From assembly GCA_046861385.1 (NCBI GenBank), contig JBHHTW010000024.1, positions 1-34,539 on the forward strand: a DNA stretch of 34,539 nt, in the 5' to 3' direction. Positions 14-10,741 of this stretch are shown here, piece after piece; position 1 is the stretch's first letter, and the number at the start of each line of letters is the position of its first letter. Source of the DNA: Fidelibacterota bacterium. GTDB taxonomy: Bacteria > Fidelibacterota > Marinisomatia > Marinisomatales > TCS55. A program made the position numbers and the translations under genes. A model generated the notes under the pieces. The model saw nothing but the letters and a program-made list of their open reading frames with translations. It did not search any database and had not been told where the DNA came from.

Positions 14-1582
14 TCAAAAAGGAAGGATATAATTAACACCCAGATTTACTGAAATATAACCAGTCGTTTGCCTATTTCCATCAATGTTGTTAGCAATGAC
101 TGCGCTGGTTCCTATTGTAATATCTACACCCATATGAAATTTTGTTTCAATACCTCCTTTAATCCCAAAACCGGGACCAACGGTTCCTACTGCCCCATGG
201 AGAATAAGTGGAAACTTTAAAGGAATAAAATCCGGTGATTCCAAATTTATCCAAGTTGCGGAAGTTTGTTCGCTTCCAAGAAATCGTATTTGTCCATAGT
301 TCAACGTGGGGACTAAAGAGAACCAGAAAATGTCAAAAGATATGGGCAGCCCGAGACCTAATCCAGCGCTAAATATATTATCTGCTCCAAGGTACTGGCC
401 AGCCAATATGTCATTACTAACATTAAACTCTAAAACAAAAGGTTGATTTTGTTTTTTTCTTTTTCGCTTTTGAGATACCTTATGTTCCGGTATTGAATCC
501 GGTTCAATTTTTTGATACCCATATTTTACCTCTGAAATATTTTTTTTAATTACCGTATCCAATTCAACCGTCACATTAAATTTTCCCTCTATTGATTGAA
601 CTAACTTCCTCAAATCTTCTTCTGTTGTTTCATTTAAAAACGACATAACATCTGCGAGGCCTGTTTTGTCTTTTGGTGATTCTAATCGCCGTTTATATTT
701 TTTCGAGAACGGAATGATTCTTTTTTCTAACAAAATTCCCATTCCGTCTTTTAGAGTCAACAAAATTTCCTTAGGAGCATTCATGTAATTAAATAATTGC
801 GTGGATAAAAGGCTATCTTTTTCATTGTAATACTTAGCCTTAAACAAATAATCTTTTTTATTATAGTACAGTTTGTGCATGCCGACTTTAGAGGAATCAT
901 CTCGAAAATATTCGGAAATTATTAATTCTTTCTCAGGGGATTTTTTCTTACCCCCTATATATTGAAACTGATAGAAATAGTATATTTGGCCTAACTCATC
1001 TTTTATAGTAACAGTCTGAGGGCGACCATCTTCTCTTTCTTTTATTTCCAGCCGCCAATTCTGACGCATTTCACTCAAATTATCGGCATATAAAAATTCG
1101 TCATAGCGCGTTAACGGTTCCCGAATATGAAATATTACTTCATATTTAGATCGCGTTCCTGCTTTATTCCACACTAAATAATATGACCATATTTTTTCCT
1201 TCTGTCTATTAAAGAGAGTTACTGTTTTAATCCGACCTTTTTGATTAAACGTGACTTGATAAAATTCTCTACCATCCAATTGGTTTCTATTTAGACCATC
1301 CGCGAGCTCCCGTTTCTCCGGGTTCCAATAGCCATAGTATAGTTTCATCCCGGATAGCTGACTCTGTTTCGCTTTATCAGGGAAATATTCTACATTAATT
1401 AATTTGCCTTGAGGTGTGTAGGTCGATTTAAAATGTGCTTTCCCTCTAATTTCTTCCTTAGAAGATTCTTCCCCCAATATTTCTGATCTTATAATATCTG
1501 TTGGAAAATATTTAACAAGAGTATCCTGTTCCTGTCCACATAATATTGTTAAGAAAAGGGCTATTTTCGTATTTCTAAACAT
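14..1582 (-). CDS. Hypothetical exported protein with repeated beta-hairpin (YD/MORN-like) N-terminal region and probable C-terminal outer-membrane beta-barrel
   Basis: 522-aa ORF with a short N-terminal hydrophobic segment. Repeated units resemble each other (FKSTYTPQGKLINVEYF, YQVTFNQKGRIKTVTLF, HKLYYNKKDYLFKAKYY). The last ~140 aa have alternating beta-strand character and end VNLGVNYILPF. Start overlaps the upstream stop. Confidence 0.6.
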   Translation of the reverse strand: MFRNTKIALFLTILCGQEQDTLVKYFPTDIIRSEILGEESSKEEIRGKAHFKSTYTPQGKLINVEYFPDKAKQSQLSGMKLYYGYWNPEKRELADGLNRNQLDGREFYQVTFNQKGRIKTVTLFNRQKEKIWSYYLVWNKAGTRSKYEVIFHIREPLTRYDEFLYADNLSEMRQNWRLEIKEREDGRPQTVTIKDELGQIYYFYQFQYIGGKKKSPEKELIISEYFRDDSSKVGMHKLYYNKKDYLFKAKYYNEKDSLLSTQLFNYMNAPKEILLTLKDGMGILLEKRIIPFSKKYKRRLESPKDKTGLADVMSFLNETTEEDLRKLVQSIEGKFNVTVELDTVIKKNISEVKYGYQKIEPDSIPEHKVSQKRKRKKQNQPFVLEFNVSNDILAGQYLGADNIFSAGLGLGLPISFDIFWFSLVPTLNYGQIRFLGSEQTSATWINLESPDFIPLKFPLILHGAVGTVGPGFGIKGGIETKFHMGVDITIGTSAVIANNIDGNRQTTGYISVNLGVNYILPF

Positions 1583-2197: not shown

Positions 2198-3967
2198 TCA
2201 TTCTATTTTATCGGTATGGTCATTTTGAGAAATTGATAGTAGTTGTTTTTGGAGCTCGCCCACTTCCAGAATAAGGTTACTACTATCTTGTCCTGCTGCT
2301 TCCTGCTCCTTGATTTTCAGTCTCGTCTGTTCAATTTTTTCTTTAATCGGCTGTGTTTTTAGCGTATTCAGACATTCCATAACTACCGATCGAGGATTCT
2401 CTACTTTATTATCATCGACTAATATTGATGCTATTTTTTCCCTCTCAATTTTATCATCAAATTGTTCCAAAATAACGGCAGTGCTATCACCCCCATTATT
2501 TAGTATTAATGAGGCTGCTTTATATAACAAAGGTTCCGAAATTAAATCCAGATAATTTTTTACAATTTTATTTACCTCTGTAAAAGATACTGCCAGTGTT
2601 TTTAATATTTCAACCTGGGCTTTTTGTGAAACGGTTGTAAATAGAGTTGTTTGGATTGATGCTAATTCTTCCTGAGGCGGAAGCTGTTTCCGGCTTGCGG
2701 ATTTTTTCAGTTGAACAATCAATTCTCTCTCGTTTATCTTCAGATCATTCGCAAGTGTCTGTAACAAATCATCTCTGATAATACTATCCCTAACTCCAGC
2801 CAGTTCTGTTAATATTTCTTTCACCAGACTTGATCGCTCTACTGCGGATAAGTTCTCTGCGTCTGTAATCTGTAAATGATATTTCAATAATGGTAACGCA
2901 GTAGATATTCCATTCTTTATGGCTTCGATGCCTTCCGCCCTCATCCAATCATCCGGATCTAAATTTTTTGGAACTTTGATCACCATTGCTTCAATACCAT
3001 TTTGCAGTAAAGAATACCCGGCGCGCAAGGCCGCTTTTCTTCCTGCTTCATCGCCATCATAAGCTAAATATACTTTTTGGGTAATTTTTCCTATCTGTAA
3101 TGCGTGGCGTTCGGTAAACGCCGTCCCCGATACCGCCAATACATTTTGGATTCCTCCTTGATACAGTTGTAAAAAATCCATATAACCTTCAACGAGCACC
3201 GCTGCATTTTCACTGCGAATATCCGGAGCTGTTTTATGATACCCGTAAAAAATTTCACTTTTATGGTACAAAGGTGTTTCCGGTGAATTCATATACTTAG
3301 CCGGATCATCACTCTCAAATACCCTGCCTCCAAAGGCTATCACTTTTTCCGATCGATTCATTATTGGGAACAAAATTCGAGAACGAAAACGATCAACAGG
3401 TCCCTGCTTTCCTTTCCCAAATAATCCAGATTTATCAATAGATTCTCTGGTAAATCCTTTTCCCCGAACTGTTTCTGTTAAGTAATCCCATGAATCATGA
3501 ACAAATCCGACTTTGAATATTTTAATTGTATTTTTTGTCAGGCCTCTATTTATTAAATATTCCAATGCGGTTTCCCCTCTTTTAGAAAAGAGGTTTTTAT
3601 GAAAGAGATTTGCCGCTAATTCATGTATCTCGTATAGTTGAGTAAATAAGCGTTTTGTTCCCGTATCCCCTGTTAATTCAACATCGATACCATATCGACG
3701 ACCCAATTGCTGAACGGCTTCCACAAAGGATAAATTGTCATGTTCCATGATGAAATTGAATACACTTCCACCAGCGCTGCAGCCAAAGCAGTGATAAATT
3801 TCTTTATCCGGCGCTACGCTGAATGAAGGTGTTCGCTCATGATGAAAAGGGCATAAGCCAAAATAATTTCGCCCTCTCTTTTTAAGGTTTACATATTGAG
3901 ACACGACATCTAATATATCTGCTGCTTGTCGAATTCGGTCTATGGTCTCCTGGCTAATGCGAGCCAT
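2198..3967 (-). CDS. dnaG: DNA primase
   Basis: CHC2 zinc finger CPFHHERTPSF...CFGC, AKYMNSPET, TOPRIM EGYMD and YDGDEAG, DPD. Confidence 0.98.
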   Translation of the reverse strand: MARISQETIDRIRQAADILDVVSQYVNLKKRGRNYFGLCPFHHERTPSFSVAPDKEIYHCFGCSAGGSVFNFIMEHDNLSFVEAVQQLGRRYGIDVELTGDTGTKRLFTQLYEIHELAANLFHKNLFSKRGETALEYLINRGLTKNTIKIFKVGFVHDSWDYLTETVRGKGFTRESIDKSGLFGKGKQGPVDRFRSRILFPIMNRSEKVIAFGGRVFESDDPAKYMNSPETPLYHKSEIFYGYHKTAPDIRSENAAVLVEGYMDFLQLYQGGIQNVLAVSGTAFTERHALQIGKITQKVYLAYDGDEAGRKAALRAGYSLLQNGIEAMVIKVPKNLDPDDWMRAEGIEAIKNGISTALPLLKYHLQITDAENLSAVERSSLVKEILTELAGVRDSIIRDDLLQTLANDLKINERELIVQLKKSASRKQLPPQEELASIQTTLFTTVSQKAQVEILKTLAVSFTEVNKIVKNYLDLISEPLLYKAASLILNNGGDSTAVILEQFDDKIEREKIASILVDDNKVENPRSVVMECLNTLKTQPIKEKIEQTRLKIKEQEAAGQDSSNLILEVGELQKQLLSISQNDHTDKIE

Positions 3968-4503
3968 TATTCATCCTCATTTTCCATTAATTCTTGAATA
4001 TATTGTTCGCTTTTTTGAATCGGATCTTGAATGTTAAATATATTAATCAGTTTTTGACGGGTACTCCTGAGTGATGAGGCAATCTTAGATTGCTCATGAA
4101 TAATGTTTGACCAATTGTCCAATGGGGCTATATCAACTATCCATAAAAATATTGTAACTAACAATGCTGCTTTGAATATACCAAATATAAAGCCCATTCC
4201 CCTATTCAACAATTTGGTGCTTTTGGCTAATAAGAGTAAATGGGTGAATTTTGTCAGAATACGTACAATTAATAGAACAACACTGAAAATAATGAAATAG
4301 TCTAATATCATAACAACCCAAGGGTTAATATTAATTGCGTTTAATACAACATCGGATAATTTGATATAATAACTCCATGCGAAAGAAGAAGCGACGATAA
4401 GTCCAATCAACCGTCCAAGTTCCTCTACCAATCCGCGCTTAAATCCGATAGCGCCCATAGCCACAATGAACATCATGGTTAAAATATCGAGGAAGAGAAT
4501 CAT
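3967..4503 (-). CDS. cvpA: CvpA family (colicin V production) membrane protein
   Basis: LD...GFKRGLVEE motif, LNRGMGFIFGIFK motif, 4 TM segments; TAATG overlap with dnaG. Confidence 0.85.
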   Translation of the reverse strand: MILFLDILTMMFIVAMGAIGFKRGLVEELGRLIGLIVASSFAWSYYIKLSDVVLNAININPWVVMILDYFIIFSVVLLIVRILTKFTHLLLLAKSTKLLNRGMGFIFGIFKAALLVTIFLWIVDIAPLDNWSNIIHEQSKIASSLRSTRQKLINIFNIQDPIQKSEQYIQELMENEDE

Positions 4504-4740: not shown

Positions 4741-5184
4741 TTAACCAAGCCTTTTCCTCAACAAAACCTGGGCGAGTTTTCCATCCGCCCTTCCGGCTGA
4801 ACGCTTCATAATTTCCGGCATTACTTTGCCAATATCAGACATTGATGAAGCACCGGTTTCAGAAATAATTTTATCCAACATTGTTCCCAGCTCTTCAGCG
4901 CTCATCATTTGGGGTAAATATGCTTCTAAAATTTTCTTTTCTTTTTTTTCCTTTTCTATCAAATCATCACGTCCCGCTTTCTCAAACATTTCGATAGATT
5001 CATTACGCTGTTTTACCATTGTTTTCAAAACACGCATCTCTTCCTGTCCGCTTAATTCTTCCCGTTTTTCAATTTTTTTATCTTTCAATTTGGATAAGGC
5101 AGTGCGCAATGTAACGACTTTTTCTCTATCACTATTTTTCATGGCTGCATACATGTCTTTTTGTATTGTATCAAATAAATTCAT
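4741..5184 (-). CDS. yqeY: GatB/YqeY domain protein
   Basis: DMYAAMK, KQRNESIEMFEKAGRDDL, YLPQMMS, DIGKVM, GRADGK motifs; AGGAG RBS. Confidence 0.95.
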   Translation of the reverse strand: MNLFDTIQKDMYAAMKNSDREKVVTLRTALSKLKDKKIEKREELSGQEEMRVLKTMVKQRNESIEMFEKAGRDDLIEKEKKEKKILEAYLPQMMSAEELGTMLDKIISETGASSMSDIGKVMPEIMKRSAGRADGKLAQVLLRKRLG

Positions 5185-5288: not shown

Positions 5289-6119
5289 TTACGCATTATC
5301 TATTCGTTTCATGGCCAATAATAAACTGTCTTTATCCGTTTCAAAACCAATGAATCGCCTTCCTAAATTTTTCACAGCTACACCGACGCTGCCCTGTCGC
5401 ATAAATGGATCAACAACCCAACTAAGTTTGTAGCTACTTACGTCCATAATTTTTCTGAGAAGCAAATTGGGTATCTCATACCTATATTTTTTATCAGGTG
5501 AATGATAATATTCCATCCACAAATTAGACATATTTCTCACTTCCTTAAAATTTTCGGAGATTGACTCATTTTCACTTATTTCATTATTAAAAATAAATGC
5601 ATTTGTTTTGGTTGCAAACCAAATATCACCTAACTCATTTTCCCATGATTTTAGTTTTTCTCTTCCTTTTATCTTCTTGTTTCGCCATGTAATTCTAGTT
5701 TGTACTTTGAAATAGTCACTTAAAATCGAATGATACATTCCGGAAAAACGCCAACCGCACAACAAATACATAGAGCCTGTTTTCTTTAATACCCGATGAC
5801 TTTCTCTTAACCAGCGATTGCTCCACTGAAAATACTCCTGGATAGTCATTCGCTTACCCTGTGTTCCTATATCCCTCCACGGACTTTCCGGCGGCGCCGT
5901 CAGAATAAGGTCAATCGATTCATCAGGAAGCCTCTTTAGACCATCAAGGGCATCTCCGAGAAAAACGCCTTCTTCCAATATTTCAATTTCTGATGATAAT
6001 TCATGTGTTTTTCGAATTGCCGATAAATATCGGTTTAAATCATCTACCGTCAGCCCGGGAGATGTTTCCAACGGATTCGTAAATAGTGGGTTTAATGATG
6101 TTTTGTCTGTTCCAACCAT
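5289..6119 (-). CDS. Beta-class N4/N6 DNA methyltransferase homolog with degenerate catalytic motifs
   Basis: GDALDGLKRLPDESIDLILT, RVLKKTGS, DPF..G and LGRRFIGFE give the beta-class order, but motif IV is APPE and motif I is FMRQG. Confidence 0.85.
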   Translation of the reverse strand: MVGTDKTSLNPLFTNPLETSPGLTVDDLNRYLSAIRKTHELSSEIEILEEGVFLGDALDGLKRLPDESIDLILTAPPESPWRDIGTQGKRMTIQEYFQWSNRWLRESHRVLKKTGSMYLLCGWRFSGMYHSILSDYFKVQTRITWRNKKIKGREKLKSWENELGDIWFATKTNAFIFNNEISENESISENFKEVRNMSNLWMEYYHSPDKKYRYEIPNLLLRKIMDVSSYKLSWVVDPFMRQGSVGVAVKNLGRRFIGFETDKDSLLLAMKRIDNA

Positions 6120-6227
6120 AGGAAAATTTACGTGCTTCTGCGCTCAAATAAACGGCGATTCTATAATGAGAGCTTTGAAAAATATTTCATAATACTTTAT
6201 AGTATGGTATAATTCTGATAGTGAATC

Positions 6228-7262
6228 TTATTGAATAATGAGTTCAAACAACCGCTCTTCATCTTCAGCCTTGAAGGATACATGCACAGGCAAGGCGAAT
6301 AACGGTAGGTCATTTAACGATTCCAGTTTGACTAAATCCTTTTCTGTGGTAATAATAGCTTCCGCTTCAGCAGACAAATACACCTCCTGAATTACTTCAA
6401 AATCTATATCAGAATAATCCGCATGATCATCATGACGAAAATGGTGGATATAATCCAATCCCGCTTCCTCTAAAATAACTTCAAAACTGTCTGGATCACC
6501 CACACCGGATACCGCTACCACCGAGCCGCTGATTTCTTTTAATGGTTTGATTGATCCGTCAAGACCGATTAAATGAGCTTCCGGTAAAAGTTCAGATTGA
6601 ATGGTAAAATCACAGTATTTGGAAATAATATTTATCAGCTTTTCACTCGGTGGCGTCAGATTTGTTTTCGTAAAAATCACAGTATTCGCCCGTCGTACAT
6701 TTTTTATTGGCTCTCTGAGGAAACCATATGGAAGGAGTTTTGGCTGACGGTTCGAGCTATTAATCAGGACAATATCTATGTCCCGGTAAACACGGCGATG
6801 CTGAAAAGCATCATCCATGAGAATAATATCCGGTTTGAATTCGCTGCAAATAAATAACCCGCCTCTGTAGCGATTTTCATCCACGACGACAGGTACGCCA
6901 CCAAGTTTTTCAGCCATCATAAAAGGTTCATCTCCGCTCTGCTGTAAATTTGACTGAATGGTTTTCCCATCACTGACAACAATGGTTCCGGAGGATTTAC
7001 GTTTATATCCCCTGCTTAATATCGCCACTTTCACCCCCTTGGTTTTTAAGGCCTTAGCAAGGTAGAGAACAAAGGGGGTTTTACCCGTACCTCCAACAGA
7101 AAGATTCCCCACACTGATCATTTTACATGGGAGTTTCCGTGAAACAAAGAATCCGATATTGTAATACAAATTTCGCCAGAAAACCAATAATCGATAGAAA
7201 AGCCCCAAGGGCCAAAGTAGTAAACGGTATTTTTTAATGGATTTCTGATCAAATTTCGGCAC
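6228..7262 (-). CDS. lpxK: Tetraacyldisaccharide 4'-kinase
   Basis: SVGNLSVGGTGKTP, LSRGYKR, GDEP, DDAFQH, LLPYGFLREP, TTEKD; GTG start overlapping upstream gene. Confidence 0.97.
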   Translation of the reverse strand: MPKFDQKSIKKYRLLLWPLGLFYRLLVFWRNLYYNIGFFVSRKLPCKMISVGNLSVGGTGKTPFVLYLAKALKTKGVKVAILSRGYKRKSSGTIVVSDGKTIQSNLQQSGDEPFMMAEKLGGVPVVVDENRYRGGLFICSEFKPDIILMDDAFQHRRVYRDIDIVLINSSNRQPKLLPYGFLREPIKNVRRANTVIFTKTNLTPPSEKLINIISKYCDFTIQSELLPEAHLIGLDGSIKPLKEISGSVVAVSGVGDPDSFEVILEEAGLDYIHHFRHDDHADYSDIDFEVIQEVYLSAEAEAIITTEKDLVKLESLNDLPLFALPVHVSFKAEDEERLFELIIQ

Positions 7263-7896
7263 GGCGTTTAGCCTCCTCTTCCAATAAATCCAATTGTTCT
7301 TTCAATTGGCGGGAACATTCTTCGAAATCATCCTCTTTGGAGAAAACCAGTGGTTCTCCCATAAGCAAAAATGTCTTACCAAAAGGCTTTGCAACATAGA
7401 ACGTATCCCAATTGGTGGAAGACCAATAGCGAGAAACAAAGCTTCCAGTTGGAAGAATGACTGCGCCGGTGCGAATGGCCGCTTTGACAGCTCCGGGCTT
7501 CGGCTCTTTTGCTGGTCCTTTTGGTCCATCCGGGGTTATGAAAATCAGTGATCCTTTTTCGTTTTCTAATACATCAACGATTTTTCTATATGCTTCCCGT
7601 CCTCCTTCAGTACTGGATCCCCGAATGGTTGTATATCCAATTTTTTCTGCAATCCGGGATATGATTTCAGCATCTCCATGGTGACCGGCCAGCCCGTAGG
7701 GCTGCTTATCCGCTATATATAAATATCCCGGTAAAAGGTTGCCGTGCCAAGTAGCAAAAATAATAGATTTCCCCTCATTACGTAATTGTTTGATCTTATT
7801 TTCTCCTTCAACATACCAGCGGTTAGTTCCGTATAGGAATTTCAATATCCATTTGCCGAATAAAACGCCCAGAAAGAATAGAAACTTTTTTTTCAT
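7249..7896 (-). CDS. DUF374 family acyltransferase (LpxJ-like lipid A late acyltransferase candidate)
   Basis: WHG, IRGSS, ITPDGPKGP and WD...KPFG motifs; lies between lpxB and lpxK. Confidence 0.85.
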   Translation of the reverse strand: MKKKFLFFLGVLFGKWILKFLYGTNRWYVEGENKIKQLRNEGKSIIFATWHGNLLPGYLYIADKQPYGLAGHHGDAEIISRIAEKIGYTTIRGSSTEGGREAYRKIVDVLENEKGSLIFITPDGPKGPAKEPKPGAVKAAIRTGAVILPTGSFVSRYWSSTNWDTFYVAKPFGKTFLLMGEPLVFSKEDDFEECSRQLKEQLDLLEEEAKRRAEI

Positions 7897-9176: not shown

Positions 9177-9752
9177 TCAAACAAATTGCCACCGGATTAC
9201 AATAAATATAATGATGAGAACAATATTTTGCAATGTGCGCTTTTCTGTTTTCAATGTTTTCTTCCAGGTCATGGGAGAGCGATGATCTTCACTTTTCCAT
9301 GGAGAGAGCCTGGGAATCAGTTTTGGAACATTCTCTTTATACAGATCATAATCACTGCCGAATAATCCCGCCAGGGTTTCTTCTTCAAGGTCAACAATGA
9401 GGGCGTATTGGATAATGAGAAATGCCCAGACCACCGCCAGCATAAGCCAAATATTGGGAGCCCCTGCAACAAGGGTCACTCCAGTAAAAATCAAAAGATT
9501 CCCAATATAGAGGGGATTCCGGACACGGGCAAAAGGTCCGGAAGAACACAATGCCGGCGCACCAACTTTTGTGGTTCTGGTAATGCCTCCGGCATATCGT
9601 ACTGCCCAAAAGCGGATGGATTCTCCGAGAAAAAGACAACCGGCACCATAATATAAATAAGGGAAGGCAGGCCTGGAGAAATAAATAATTAATAAAGCCA
9701 AAGGAATGGGTGTAAAACTTCTGTTTTTGAAAAAGAAATTGCGTATATCCAT
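9177..9752 (-). CDS. ICMT/PEMT-family membrane methyltransferase (LmtA-like lipid A phosphate methyltransferase candidate)
   Basis: GPFARVRNPLYIG and EE..L...FG..Y..Y...VP..IP family motifs, several TM helices; sits in the lipid A cluster and is TAATG-coupled to the upstream gene. Confidence 0.8.
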   Translation of the reverse strand: MDIRNFFFKNRSFTPIPLALLIIYFSRPAFPYLYYGAGCLFLGESIRFWAVRYAGGITRTTKVGAPALCSSGPFARVRNPLYIGNLLIFTGVTLVAGAPNIWLMLAVVWAFLIIQYALIVDLEEETLAGLFGSDYDLYKENVPKLIPRLSPWKSEDHRSPMTWKKTLKTEKRTLQNIVLIIIFIVIRWQFV

Positions 9753-10741
9753 TAGTGTATATCTTCCAATATCAAATCGTGAATTTTTACGGCAACATCC
9801 AAAGCTTCTCGTCCCGCATGACCGTTTACAATTGGTGTTTCTTTACCTTGAATTGAAGCAATAAAATTGGTTAACTCCAATTCCAAAGCATCTATTTTAC
9901 TCACTTCCGGTTTCTCATAAACAATCTTTCGGGGAATCCCATAAGAATCCAATGGAGCGGTTTGAATCGCCGCCGGATTGTCTATGTTTTCATCAAGGAC
10001 GCGGTATATTTCTGTAAGCCCCAATAGAAAATCAATCGTCACATACATGTCTTTTTGAAAGATCTTAATTTTTCGGACTTTATCCCTGGCAATTCGGCTT
10101 GATGTTATGCTGGCAACGGTTCCATTTTCAAAACGAATTCTGGCATTTGCGATATCCACAGAATCTGATAAAATAGAGACACCGCTGGCTCGAATATTTT
10201 TCACGGAGGACTGCACCAATGACAGGATAATATCAATATCATGAATCATGAGATCCAAAATAACAGGAACATCGGTACCGCGGGCTGTGTAAGGAGCCAG
10301 CCGCTGAACTTCAATATATTTTGGTTGTAAATCAAAATTCTTTAGAGGAATTAATGCGGGGTTCAGCCGCTCTATGTGCCCCACTTGAATGATAACATTG
10401 TTTTCTTCAGCCAATTGTAAAAGATGGTCAGCTTCATCTACTGTCTTGGTAATGGGTTTTTCAATAAACACATGTTTTCCGGCTCTGATACATTCTTCCG
10501 CAACAGCGGCATGAGCGCGAGTGGGTGTTACAATAGAAATGCCGTCACAGTTTTCAACCAACTGACTTATGGAATCAAAAACAAATGTTCCATATTCTTT
10601 GGCTATGATATTACTACGATCCTTATCAATATCATATATGCCCATGAACCGACATTCGTTGTGATTAGTTAAATGTTTTACATGGTGGTTGCCAAGGTGA
10701 CCGACACCAATGATACCGATTTTTGGAAGATTGTTTTTCAT
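9752..10741 (-). CDS. Gfo/Idh/MocA oxidoreductase, GnnA-like UDP-GlcNAc 3-dehydrogenase
   Basis: GVGHLG, IVTPT, EKP, GHIERLNPA, RLAP...R..D...DLMIHD, SR motifs; upstream of lpxB. Confidence 0.85.
   Translation of the reverse strand: MKNNLPKIGIIGVGHLGNHHVKHLTNHNECRFMGIYDIDKDRSNIIAKEYGTFVFDSISQLVENCDGISIVTPTRAHAAVAEECIRAGKHVFIEKPITKTVDEADHLLQLAEENNVIIQVGHIERLNPALIPLKNFDLQPKYIEVQRLAPYTARGTDVPVILDLMIHDIDIILSLVQSSVKNIRASGVSILSDSVDIANARIRFENGTVASITSSRIARDKVRKIKIFQKDMYVTIDFLLGLTEIYRVLDENIDNPAAIQTAPLDSYGIPRKIVYEKPEVSKIDALELELTNFIASIQGKETPIVNGHAGREALDVAVKIHDLILEDIH

Follow-up and report, generated by a model that had tools for sequence, protein, structure and literature searches.

A beta-class methyltransferase homolog with altered catalytic motifs at the head of a yqeY-cvpA-dnaG cluster in Fidelibacterota

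M.BceJIV, an orphan N6-adenine methyltransferase (MTase) of Burkholderia cenocepacia (structures 8URK and 9C3S-U), is a beta-class amino-MTase and methylates the sequence GTWWAC (PMC11380664, available text). In this enzyme, the flipped adenine is contacted by Asp59, Pro60 and Tyr62 from DPPY (motif IV), as well as by Tyr68 and Lys218, and is stacked between Tyr62 and Thr216; the adenine of the cofactor, S-adenosylmethionine (SAM), lies between Phe241 and Ile263, with Glu262 holding the ribose, the three residues Ser244, Lys218 and Thr246 the carboxyl end, and Asp59 together with Tyr68 the amino/sulfonium end (PMC11380664, available text). Beta-class proteins dimerize, and two of them, METTL14 (with METTL3) and the ciliate MTA9 (with MTA1), possess an eroded motif IV (EPPL in METTL14) and a non-catalytic role (PMC7544214, available text). 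A further term of comparison is the macromolecular-synthesis (MMS) operon, whose gene order in Francisella tularensis is rpsU-yqeY-dnaG-rpoD (PMC13374519, available text). Here, a degenerate homolog of the beta-class amino-MTases, referred to as pMT, is described from a stretch of 34,539 nucleotides of a Fidelibacterota bacterium (GCA_046861385.1, contig JBHHTW010000024.1, positions 1-34,539 of the forward strand), hereafter the window, i.e., the whole stretch that was analyzed. The analysis suggests that pMT is probably a stand-alone pseudo-MTase, maintained by selection and acting by binding, whose gene clusters with yqeY, cvpA and dnaG and is probably expressed together with them.

Fold, altered motifs and origin of pMT

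The first-pass annotation of this DNA, made from the sequence alone, had described a full-length, intact beta-class MTase open reading frame (ORF), and this was borne out by the near-complete match of the 276 amino acids of pMT to PF01555 (N6_N4_Mtase; E 3.7e-29, 102.7 bits against a cut-off of 26.7, profile positions 1-219 of 221). The start codon can be considered right because the N-terminus lines up with those of the orthologs. The motif places follow one another in the beta permutation, with that of motif IV at residues 75-78, that of HPxQKP at residues 212-217 and that of motif I at residues 239-243. The solved structures closest in sequence are 8urk and 9c3u (E ~4e-18; 4.6e-18 for 8urk), followed by M1.HpyAVI, CcrM and M.RsrI. 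An AlphaFold2 model, obtained from 25 orthologs with a mean predicted local distance difference test (pLDDT) of 70.5 and a predicted template modeling score (pTM) of 0.71, gave CcrM (6pbd, E 1.4e-15) and M.BceJIV (8urk, E 2.1e-15) as top Foldseek matches, with M.MboIIA, M.RsrI and M.PvuII as further ones. The best NCBIfam models were PRK11524 (YhdJ), with a score of 87.8 against a cut-off of 292, and CcrM, with 58.5 against 830; hence, neither equivalog cut-off is reached. Among proteins of 484-2000 amino acids, a search at E <= 1e-20 gave no fused or longer form of pMT, a negative that counts as weak evidence.

In the phmmer alignment, the DPPY, HPTQKP and FMGSG of M.BceJIV (8urk) are faced by APPE, YRYEIP and FMRQG, respectively, and all three altered signatures, already pointed out in the first-pass annotation, are present in the DNA at the expected places (Table 1). 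The hallmarks of an active beta-class enzyme, i.e., (D/N/S)PP(Y/F/W) in motif IV and FxGxG in motif I, are therefore lacking in pMT. With respect to M.BceJIV, D59 is replaced by A75, Y62 by E78, Y68 by I84, T216 by Y214, K218 by I216, G243 by R241 and S244 by Q242; Ile263 and Thr246 also differ (T261 and S244 in pMT), and F241 and E262 are kept as F239 and E260. Judging from this alignment, the contacts to the target base and to the reactive end of SAM are all altered, and the Phe and Glu holding the adenosine remain; pMT is thus predicted to have lost its methylation activity.

A word-indexed search retrieved 593 matches, and the residue counts that follow were taken from the 120 listed ones (51-100% identity, nearly all 273-283 amino acids long, all with PF01555), the few named entries of which are labeled either as Candidatus Marinimicrobia or as "site-specific DNA-methyltransferase (adenine-specific)". 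The first position of motif IV is occupied by A in 86 sequences, D in 15, N in 10, V in four and other residues in five, and the fourth by V in 79, E in 38 and Q, M and K in one each; an aromatic residue is found there in none of the 120. Hence, DPPY, whose retention in the orthologs, combined with neutral evolution, would have meant a simple decay of the copy in the window, is kept by none of them. Arg occupies the place of the first Gly of FxGxG in 106 sequences, and the Gly is retained in the other 14, so that FMRQG, given in the first-pass annotation as the altered form of FxGxG, does not hold as a trait of the whole family. At the site of Lys218 of M.BceJIV, the residues are L (87), K (25) and others (8). 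The two prolines of motif IV (PP), W81, D237, F239, G243, G246 and E260 are present in all 120 sequences, and 72 columns are invariant in 25 orthologs sharing 51-84% identity.

The residue check was extended to 12 further loci from nine families. The fourth position of motif IV is aromatic in none of them, PP is lost in three and W81 is present in six; the acid of motif II, which binds the ribose, is E in nine loci, D in two and G in one, and in motif I the first Gly is kept in two loci and the second is changed to Ala in one. These losses of W81, PP and the motif II acid indicate that the neat conservation of the pocket is limited to the clade of the window and does not concern the whole family.

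These residues bear on a different explanation, according to which pMT is still an active SAM-dependent MTase with an unconventional site, where, for instance, Trp81, situated in the motif IV loop, might take the place of the stacking Tyr and the substrate might possibly be an RNA, a protein or a small molecule. In the listed relatives, the half of the SAM site that receives the adenosine looks intact, and some of them still exhibit FMGSG (14) or the Lys (25); in some predicted pseudoenzymes, moreover, the catalytic residues have moved to other positions (PMC10211241, available text). However, the equivalents of D59, Y62, Y68 and K218 vary between orthologs, a pattern that a relocated active site would not lead one to expect, and in most of the listed relatives Arg has replaced the first Gly of the SAM loop. 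Moreover, the losses at W81, PP and the ribose-binding acid in the wider family, as well as the position of the motif IV loop and of the HPxQKP place among the least conserved segments (see below), speak against a persisting activity, which is thus regarded as unlikely.

An exhaustive search of 1.84 billion representatives disclosed only 19 proteins at E <= 1e-30, and below about 37% identity the matches turn canonical, with DPPY, DPPF or SPPY, HPTQKP and GSGTT. Among the next-best representatives (P0121-P0269, 149 rows), motif IV reads DPPY in 65, DPPF in 18 and SPPY in six; the remaining rows comprise 26 fragments without the motif IV columns and 34 other readings, mostly fragments of the pMT family. 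The altered motif IV of pMT is thus no product of chance. One of the matches (P0137), 1598 amino acids long, contains seven separate stretches matching pMT (E 3.5e-36, 30% identity) and may hold several MTase-like repeats. In the phylogenetic tree, obtained by a quick maximum-likelihood search only (the careful search was unfinished), the degenerate family forms one clade, with a Shimodaira-Hasegawa-like approximate likelihood-ratio test (SH-aLRT) value of 100; four other rows counted as degenerate are in fact canonical, since the profile alignment places their aromatic residue in an insert. With the nearest canonical clade (P0141, P0147 and P0149), pMT shares 30% identity over residues 23-276; this clade matches the YhdJ/PRK11524 models below the cut-off and has the WRxSG and RITW features in common with pMT. 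The pMT family has a single origin, from YhdJ/M.BceJIV-like adenine MTases, and YhdJ-type enzymes are its likely ancestry.

Distribution, selection and conserved segments

The family profile was searched against 201 genomes of the phylum, 64 from the order to which the window belongs and 137 others. Strong matches (E <= 1e-76) were found in 52 of the 64 genomes of the order, one per positive genome, and in none of the 137 others, whose best match (9.1e-27) is a generic MTase. By family, pMT is harbored by 18 of the 19 genomes of f1 in addition to that of the window, 4/4 of f2, 12/13 of f3, 6/6 of f4, 3/3 of f6, 4/4 of f7, 2/2 of f12, 1/1 of f13 and 1/1 of f14; among the sampled genomes, a strong match is absent from f5 (0/4), f8 (0/3), f9, f10, f11 and one member of f1 (G187).

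The f3 genomes, of 0.8-1.1 Mb at 92-99% completeness, retain pMT without its first ~21 residues. In two of them, G071 and G186 (about 1 Mb; loci L024 and L032), the protein has no N-terminal tail and is shortened to 240-247 amino acids; what remains of motif IV is EPS, Asn replaces the first Gly of motif I, and the LTVKDL(D/N)(R/K)YLPA helix is retained. The f3 genome without a strong match (G140) carries on contig 47 (5087-5731, minus strand; a 228-amino-acid frame) two adjacent weaker matches (1.0e-20 and 2.7e-13), representing either a more diverged copy of pMT or a rearranged one.

The ratio of nonsynonymous to synonymous substitution rates (dN/dS) was computed by the Nei-Gojobori method (NG86) on codon alignments of 20 loci, using 16 pairs, three of which were saturated. 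For the 13 pairs with an estimable dS, pMT shows ratios of 0.029-0.13, although these values are rough, many dS exceeding 1; in the two least diverged pairs the ratio is 0.061 (dS 0.79) and 0.047 (dS 0.73). In the same pairs, the neighboring yqeY and cvpA gave 0.032-0.144 and 0.064-0.177, respectively, and purifying selection on pMT is as strong as that on its housekeeping neighbors. This agrees with the earlier view of the gene as maintained rather than decaying. The idea that pMT is the relic of an orphan MTase gene in neutral decay, left open by chance, might draw on the catalytic motifs being eroded, and differently so by lineage; nevertheless, ratios so far below 1 exclude a simple decay, and the 72 invariant columns, the stop-free reading frame of all the listed strong matches, the retention of the gene in genomes of 0.8-1.1 Mb and the fixed gene order (see below) also stand against this idea, which is considered extremely improbable.

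The conservation of single segments was expressed as the mean frequency of the top residue in 33 diverse members of the family. Conservation is highest in the N-terminal helix formed by residues 23-34 (0.82), followed by the strand at residues 137-146 (0.79) and by motifs I and II (0.77 and 0.76, respectively); the lowest values are those of the segment resembling the target recognition domain (TRD; 0.28), of the loop-45 equivalent and the HPxQKP place (0.40 each) and of the loop of motif IV (0.54). At the positions of the N-terminal helix, 46-48 of 48 canonical relatives have no aligned residue; its family-specific invariants are L23, D27, L28, N29, Y31, L32 and A34. Others are P80, M128-Y129, W167, L232, W234 and, in the C-terminal helix, L267, M270 and D274. 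L267 and M270 have a frequency of 1.00 in the pMT family and of 0.02 and 0.00 in the canonical relatives, which have K/E instead. The residues specific to the two helices might form a new hydrophobic contact, either internal (the N-terminal helix on the C-terminal one) or with a partner. The N-terminal tail preceding them is poorly conserved (0.47) and absent in the f3 genomes; for these reasons, the idea that its "NPLF" might be a sliding-clamp motif was set aside.

The same data allow one to consider whether pMT might be a non-catalytic, sequence-specific DNA- or RNA-binding regulator, relying on the old TRD and loops and possibly controlling replication or the primase cluster; the first-pass annotation had proposed a nucleic-acid-binding regulator as an alternative. 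The descent from DNA adenine MTases, the position of the gene at the head of a cluster ending in dnaG and the basic character of the protein of the window (isoelectric point, pI, of 8.75) agree with this possibility. However, the segments expected to recognize DNA (loop-45 and TRD) are the least conserved of the family and are modeled with a pLDDT < 50, and the family is mostly acidic, with a median pI of 5.25 (range 4.91-9.33) and a net charge of -6.1, versus 8.74 and +4.7 in the 48 canonical relatives. These two features speak against a conserved DNA reader; a conserved sequence-specific recognition of DNA by pMT is unlikely, the proposal found no support in them, and a regulator of DNA or RNA is held to be improbable.

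Gene neighborhood and paralogs

The coordinates of pMT, of its altered motifs and of the surrounding genes are reported in Table 1.

Table 1. Features of the window, with positions counted from its first nucleotide
Feature	Coordinates	Strand	Remarks
pMT	5289..6119	minus	276 amino acids, ATG start; PF01555 homolog, degenerate beta-class MTase
N-terminal helix, residues 23-34, LTVDDLNRYLSA	6018..6053	minus	Family-specific; modeled helix 25-32
Motif IV remnant APPE, residues 75-78	5886..5897	minus	Aligned to D59-P-P-Y62 of M.BceJIV
YRYEIP, residues 212-217	5469..5486	minus	At the HPTQKP place (motif X region); aligned to M.BceJIV
Motif I remnant FMRQG, residues 239-243	5391..5405	minus	Phe and second Gly kept, first Gly replaced by Arg
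C-terminal helix, residues 263-276	5292..5333	minus	Modeled helix 263-275; family-specific hydrophobic residues
yqeY	4741..5184	minus	GatB/YqeY domain, PF09424 9.7e-45; next gene downstream of pMT
cvpA	3967..4503	minus	Colicin V production membrane protein family, PF02674 3.1e-22
dnaG	2198..3967	minus	DNA primase, last gene of the conserved cluster; Zn-ribbon, DNAG_N and Toprim domains
522-amino-acid ORF	14..1582	minus	Directly after dnaG; no Pfam/NCBIfam match, not recognizably rpoD
lpxK	6228..7262	minus	PF02606 3e-83; upstream, outside the conserved cluster

On the minus strand of the window, the genes are arranged in the order lpxB, DUF374, lpxK, pMT, yqeY, cvpA, dnaG and the 522-amino-acid ORF. 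The neighbors encoded within about 5 kb are DnaG, CvpA, YqeY, LpxK, DUF374, LpxB, a PEMT-like protein and a GFO/IDH/MocA oxidoreductase; within this distance, the housekeeping surroundings and the lack of a restriction gene reported in the first-pass annotation were found again. Neither a linked restriction gene nor the patchy, mobile distribution of a type II restriction-modification (R-M) system is observed, the gene order being fixed throughout the order, and PADLOC assigned to pMT only the generic MTase_II/oMTase profiles.

The gene yqeY lies downstream of pMT in the same direction in all of 20 short and 12 long loci, and cvpA is found in 19 and 11 of them, respectively. The gap between pMT and yqeY in the short loci is <= 30 bp in 14, 49 bp in three and 104-188 bp in the genus of the window. 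In the 12 long loci, which represent nine families, dnaG is always located downstream, and a homolog of the 522-amino-acid ORF is present in six. Thus, pMT heads a tightly spaced pMT-yqeY-cvpA-dnaG cluster, which is a variant of the MMS operon. A replacement of rpsU by pMT was considered and rejected, rpsU being found elsewhere in the genome of the window (contig 75).

Upstream, lpxK precedes pMT only in the genome of the window (tblastn: L002 and L006; not in the short loci of 19 other genomes). The DUF374 gene (7249-7896, minus strand), located after lpxB, shares 14 bases with the start of lpxK, forming a compact lipid A cluster, which is preceded in turn by the PEMT-like gene (9177-9752) and that of the GFO/IDH/MocA oxidoreductase (9752-10741).

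Five sampled genomes of sister families devoid of pMT retain yqeY-cvpA-dnaG (four) or yqeY-dnaG (one), as read from translations, with unrelated genes upstream; the cluster therefore works without pMT, which seems to have joined the head of an older cluster. In two families without pMT, yqeY-cvpA-dnaG is preceded by a plus-strand gene (L035, 722-1177; L037, 656-1102) whose product starts with MxFS(K/R)SxEYxIQA and looks, by eye, like an Rrf2-type regulator.

The promoter-like site that the first-pass annotation had assigned to the gene was not confirmed: no sigma-70 site was detected on the minus strand of the spacer at 6120-6227, the sigma-70-like sites located there (6166-6213) being all on the plus strand. 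Nor are such sites enriched in the region (16, versus 12.0 +/- 4.2 in shuffled sequences), and a scan of this kind may not fit the host, which may use another promoter type, so that it is uninformative. Among the public sequencing runs, no RNA run is listed with pMT, and the only ones listed with the full gene are DNA runs of one sample, possibly that of the source. A prediction of the pMT-YqeY complex from two alignments (score 0.01, mark 0.32) was uninformative either way.

The genome of the window also contains a second PF01555 gene (G000 contig 16, L001, 1468-2625, minus strand; 385 amino acids, PF01555 2.2e-41), which is canonical (SPPY, HPAMFP and, in DPFNGVGTT, FNGVG) and is extended at its N-terminus by a long segment. 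Directly downstream of this gene there is a 185-amino-acid ORF (614-1171, minus strand) without Pfam or PADLOC match; the two look like a candidate type II R-M pair whose nuclease is unclassified. PF01555 paralogs were counted in 81 genomes of the order, 36 of which overlap with the set of strong pMT matches. In 17 of these 36, pMT is the sole PF01555 match, with matching coordinates; this is also the case of G071, a genome in one contig (96% complete, about 1.0 Mb).

These counts are relevant to the hypothesis that pMT is an inactive subunit resembling METTL14 or MTA9, which would form a heterodimer with an active beta-class paralog and supply substrate binding, as the first-pass annotation had envisaged. 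The search for an active paralog in the same genomes that it recommended was only partly successful, since the canonical gene of contig 16 was found in the genome of the window, whereas none was found by the PF01555 search in 17 of the 36 genomes. This finding means that an obligate active partner of the beta class is not general, other MTase classes not having been searched. Furthermore, the paralog of contig 16 is on a different contig from pMT and looks like part of a variable R-M pair, and the number of paralogs ranges from 0 to 9 per genome while pMT is constant. The METTL14-like scaffold is consequently not supported, and we regard it as very unlikely.

Proposed role and comparison with described systems

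On the whole, the data are best accounted for by a selected, stand-alone pseudo-MTase. According to this interpretation, pMT would work by binding, without methyl transfer, and, in common with beta-class proteins, would probably do so as a dimer; binding might take place through the conserved Rossmann core, the region around helix aC and the lineage-specific N- and C-terminal helices, and the protein would probably be co-expressed with YqeY, CvpA and the primase.

Several points weigh against this interpretation. The inactivity of pMT is deduced from the sequence alone, its dimerization from the family and the co-transcription of the cluster from the spacing of the genes; the structural model is of moderate quality; and the five genomes mentioned above retain the cluster without pMT. 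The invariance, in the 120 listed sequences, of the adenosine-contacting F239, D237, G243 and E260, together with W81, implies that a ligand pocket, or even an unconventional active site, could persist in their clade. Lastly, a deep sub-clade of the family keeps D or N at the first position of motif IV, Lys at the site of K218 and FMGSG, so that only the aromatic residue of motif IV and HP have been lost in it.

A bolder extension of the pseudoenzyme interpretation is that the pMT family might be a bacterial housekeeping pseudoenzyme whose former SAM/adenine pocket has been repurposed as a sensor of the methyl cycle or of nucleotides, with an effect on the initiation of replication or translation. 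In that case, the pocket (in the clade of the window, the invariant Phe239, Glu260, Asp237 and Gly243, along with Trp81, equally invariant and part of the former catalytic loop) would bind an adenine-containing ligand or the end of a protein or RNA, and the N- and C-terminal helices would couple the signal to YqeY, CvpA and DnaG. Such a sensor is a long shot; if it were real, it would act in one of the most abundant bacterial lineages of the deep ocean. If pMT binds a partner or a ligand, it would in any case offer a simple bacterial model for the repurposing of the MTase fold.

No description of a stand-alone, order-wide, single-copy and selected bacterial homolog of beta-class MTases heading a primase cluster was found in the literature searched, most subscription journals lying outside it; the available text of a preprint (10.1101/2023.12.13.571470) does not treat inactive beta-class homologs. 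In a marine metaepigenome, Marinimicrobia bins with and without methylated motifs were reported (PMC8919816, available text), none of which can be linked to pMT, and no support was drawn from them. Since pMT relatives carry the database label of adenine-specific DNA-MTases, marine methylome and R-M surveys probably over-count active MTases in this lineage.

Among the described proteins, M.BceJIV is the best sequence match and a top fold match to pMT, with which it shares the size class (283 amino acids), the beta order of motifs, the absence of a restriction partner and the adenosine contacts of the F241/E262 type. Unlike pMT, it has DPPY, Tyr68, HPTQKP and FMGSG, where pMT has A, E, I, YRYEIP and FMRQG; moreover, the segments of pMT aligned to the loop-45 and TRD of M.BceJIV are not conserved among orthologs. 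YhdJ (PRK11524) and CcrM provide the best NCBIfam models for pMT, which differs from both in its lost catalytic motifs and in its scores below the cut-off.

As in METTL14 and MTA9, the erosion of motif IV in pMT occurs in an otherwise intact beta-class fold; however, those proteins are eukaryotic subunits of the MT-A70 family that need an active paralog, whereas pMT is bacterial and stand-alone, and, on the PF01555 search, an active paralog is not always encoded in the same genome. Structurally, pMT resembles METTL3-14 and MTA1c only weakly (E 5e-5 to 1e-4, TM 0.33-0.39). Dnmt3L is another eukaryotic non-catalytic MTase paralog and, to our knowledge, such eukaryotic paralogs always serve an active partner.

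As for the gene cluster, the order yqeY-...-dnaG is that of the MMS operon (in the available text of its description), and pMT stands at the head position occupied there by rpsU. The cluster of the window differs from the MMS operon in that rpsU is located on another contig and cvpA is inserted between yqeY and dnaG, and in that the place after dnaG, taken by rpoD in classical MMS operons, is occupied by the 522-amino-acid ORF.

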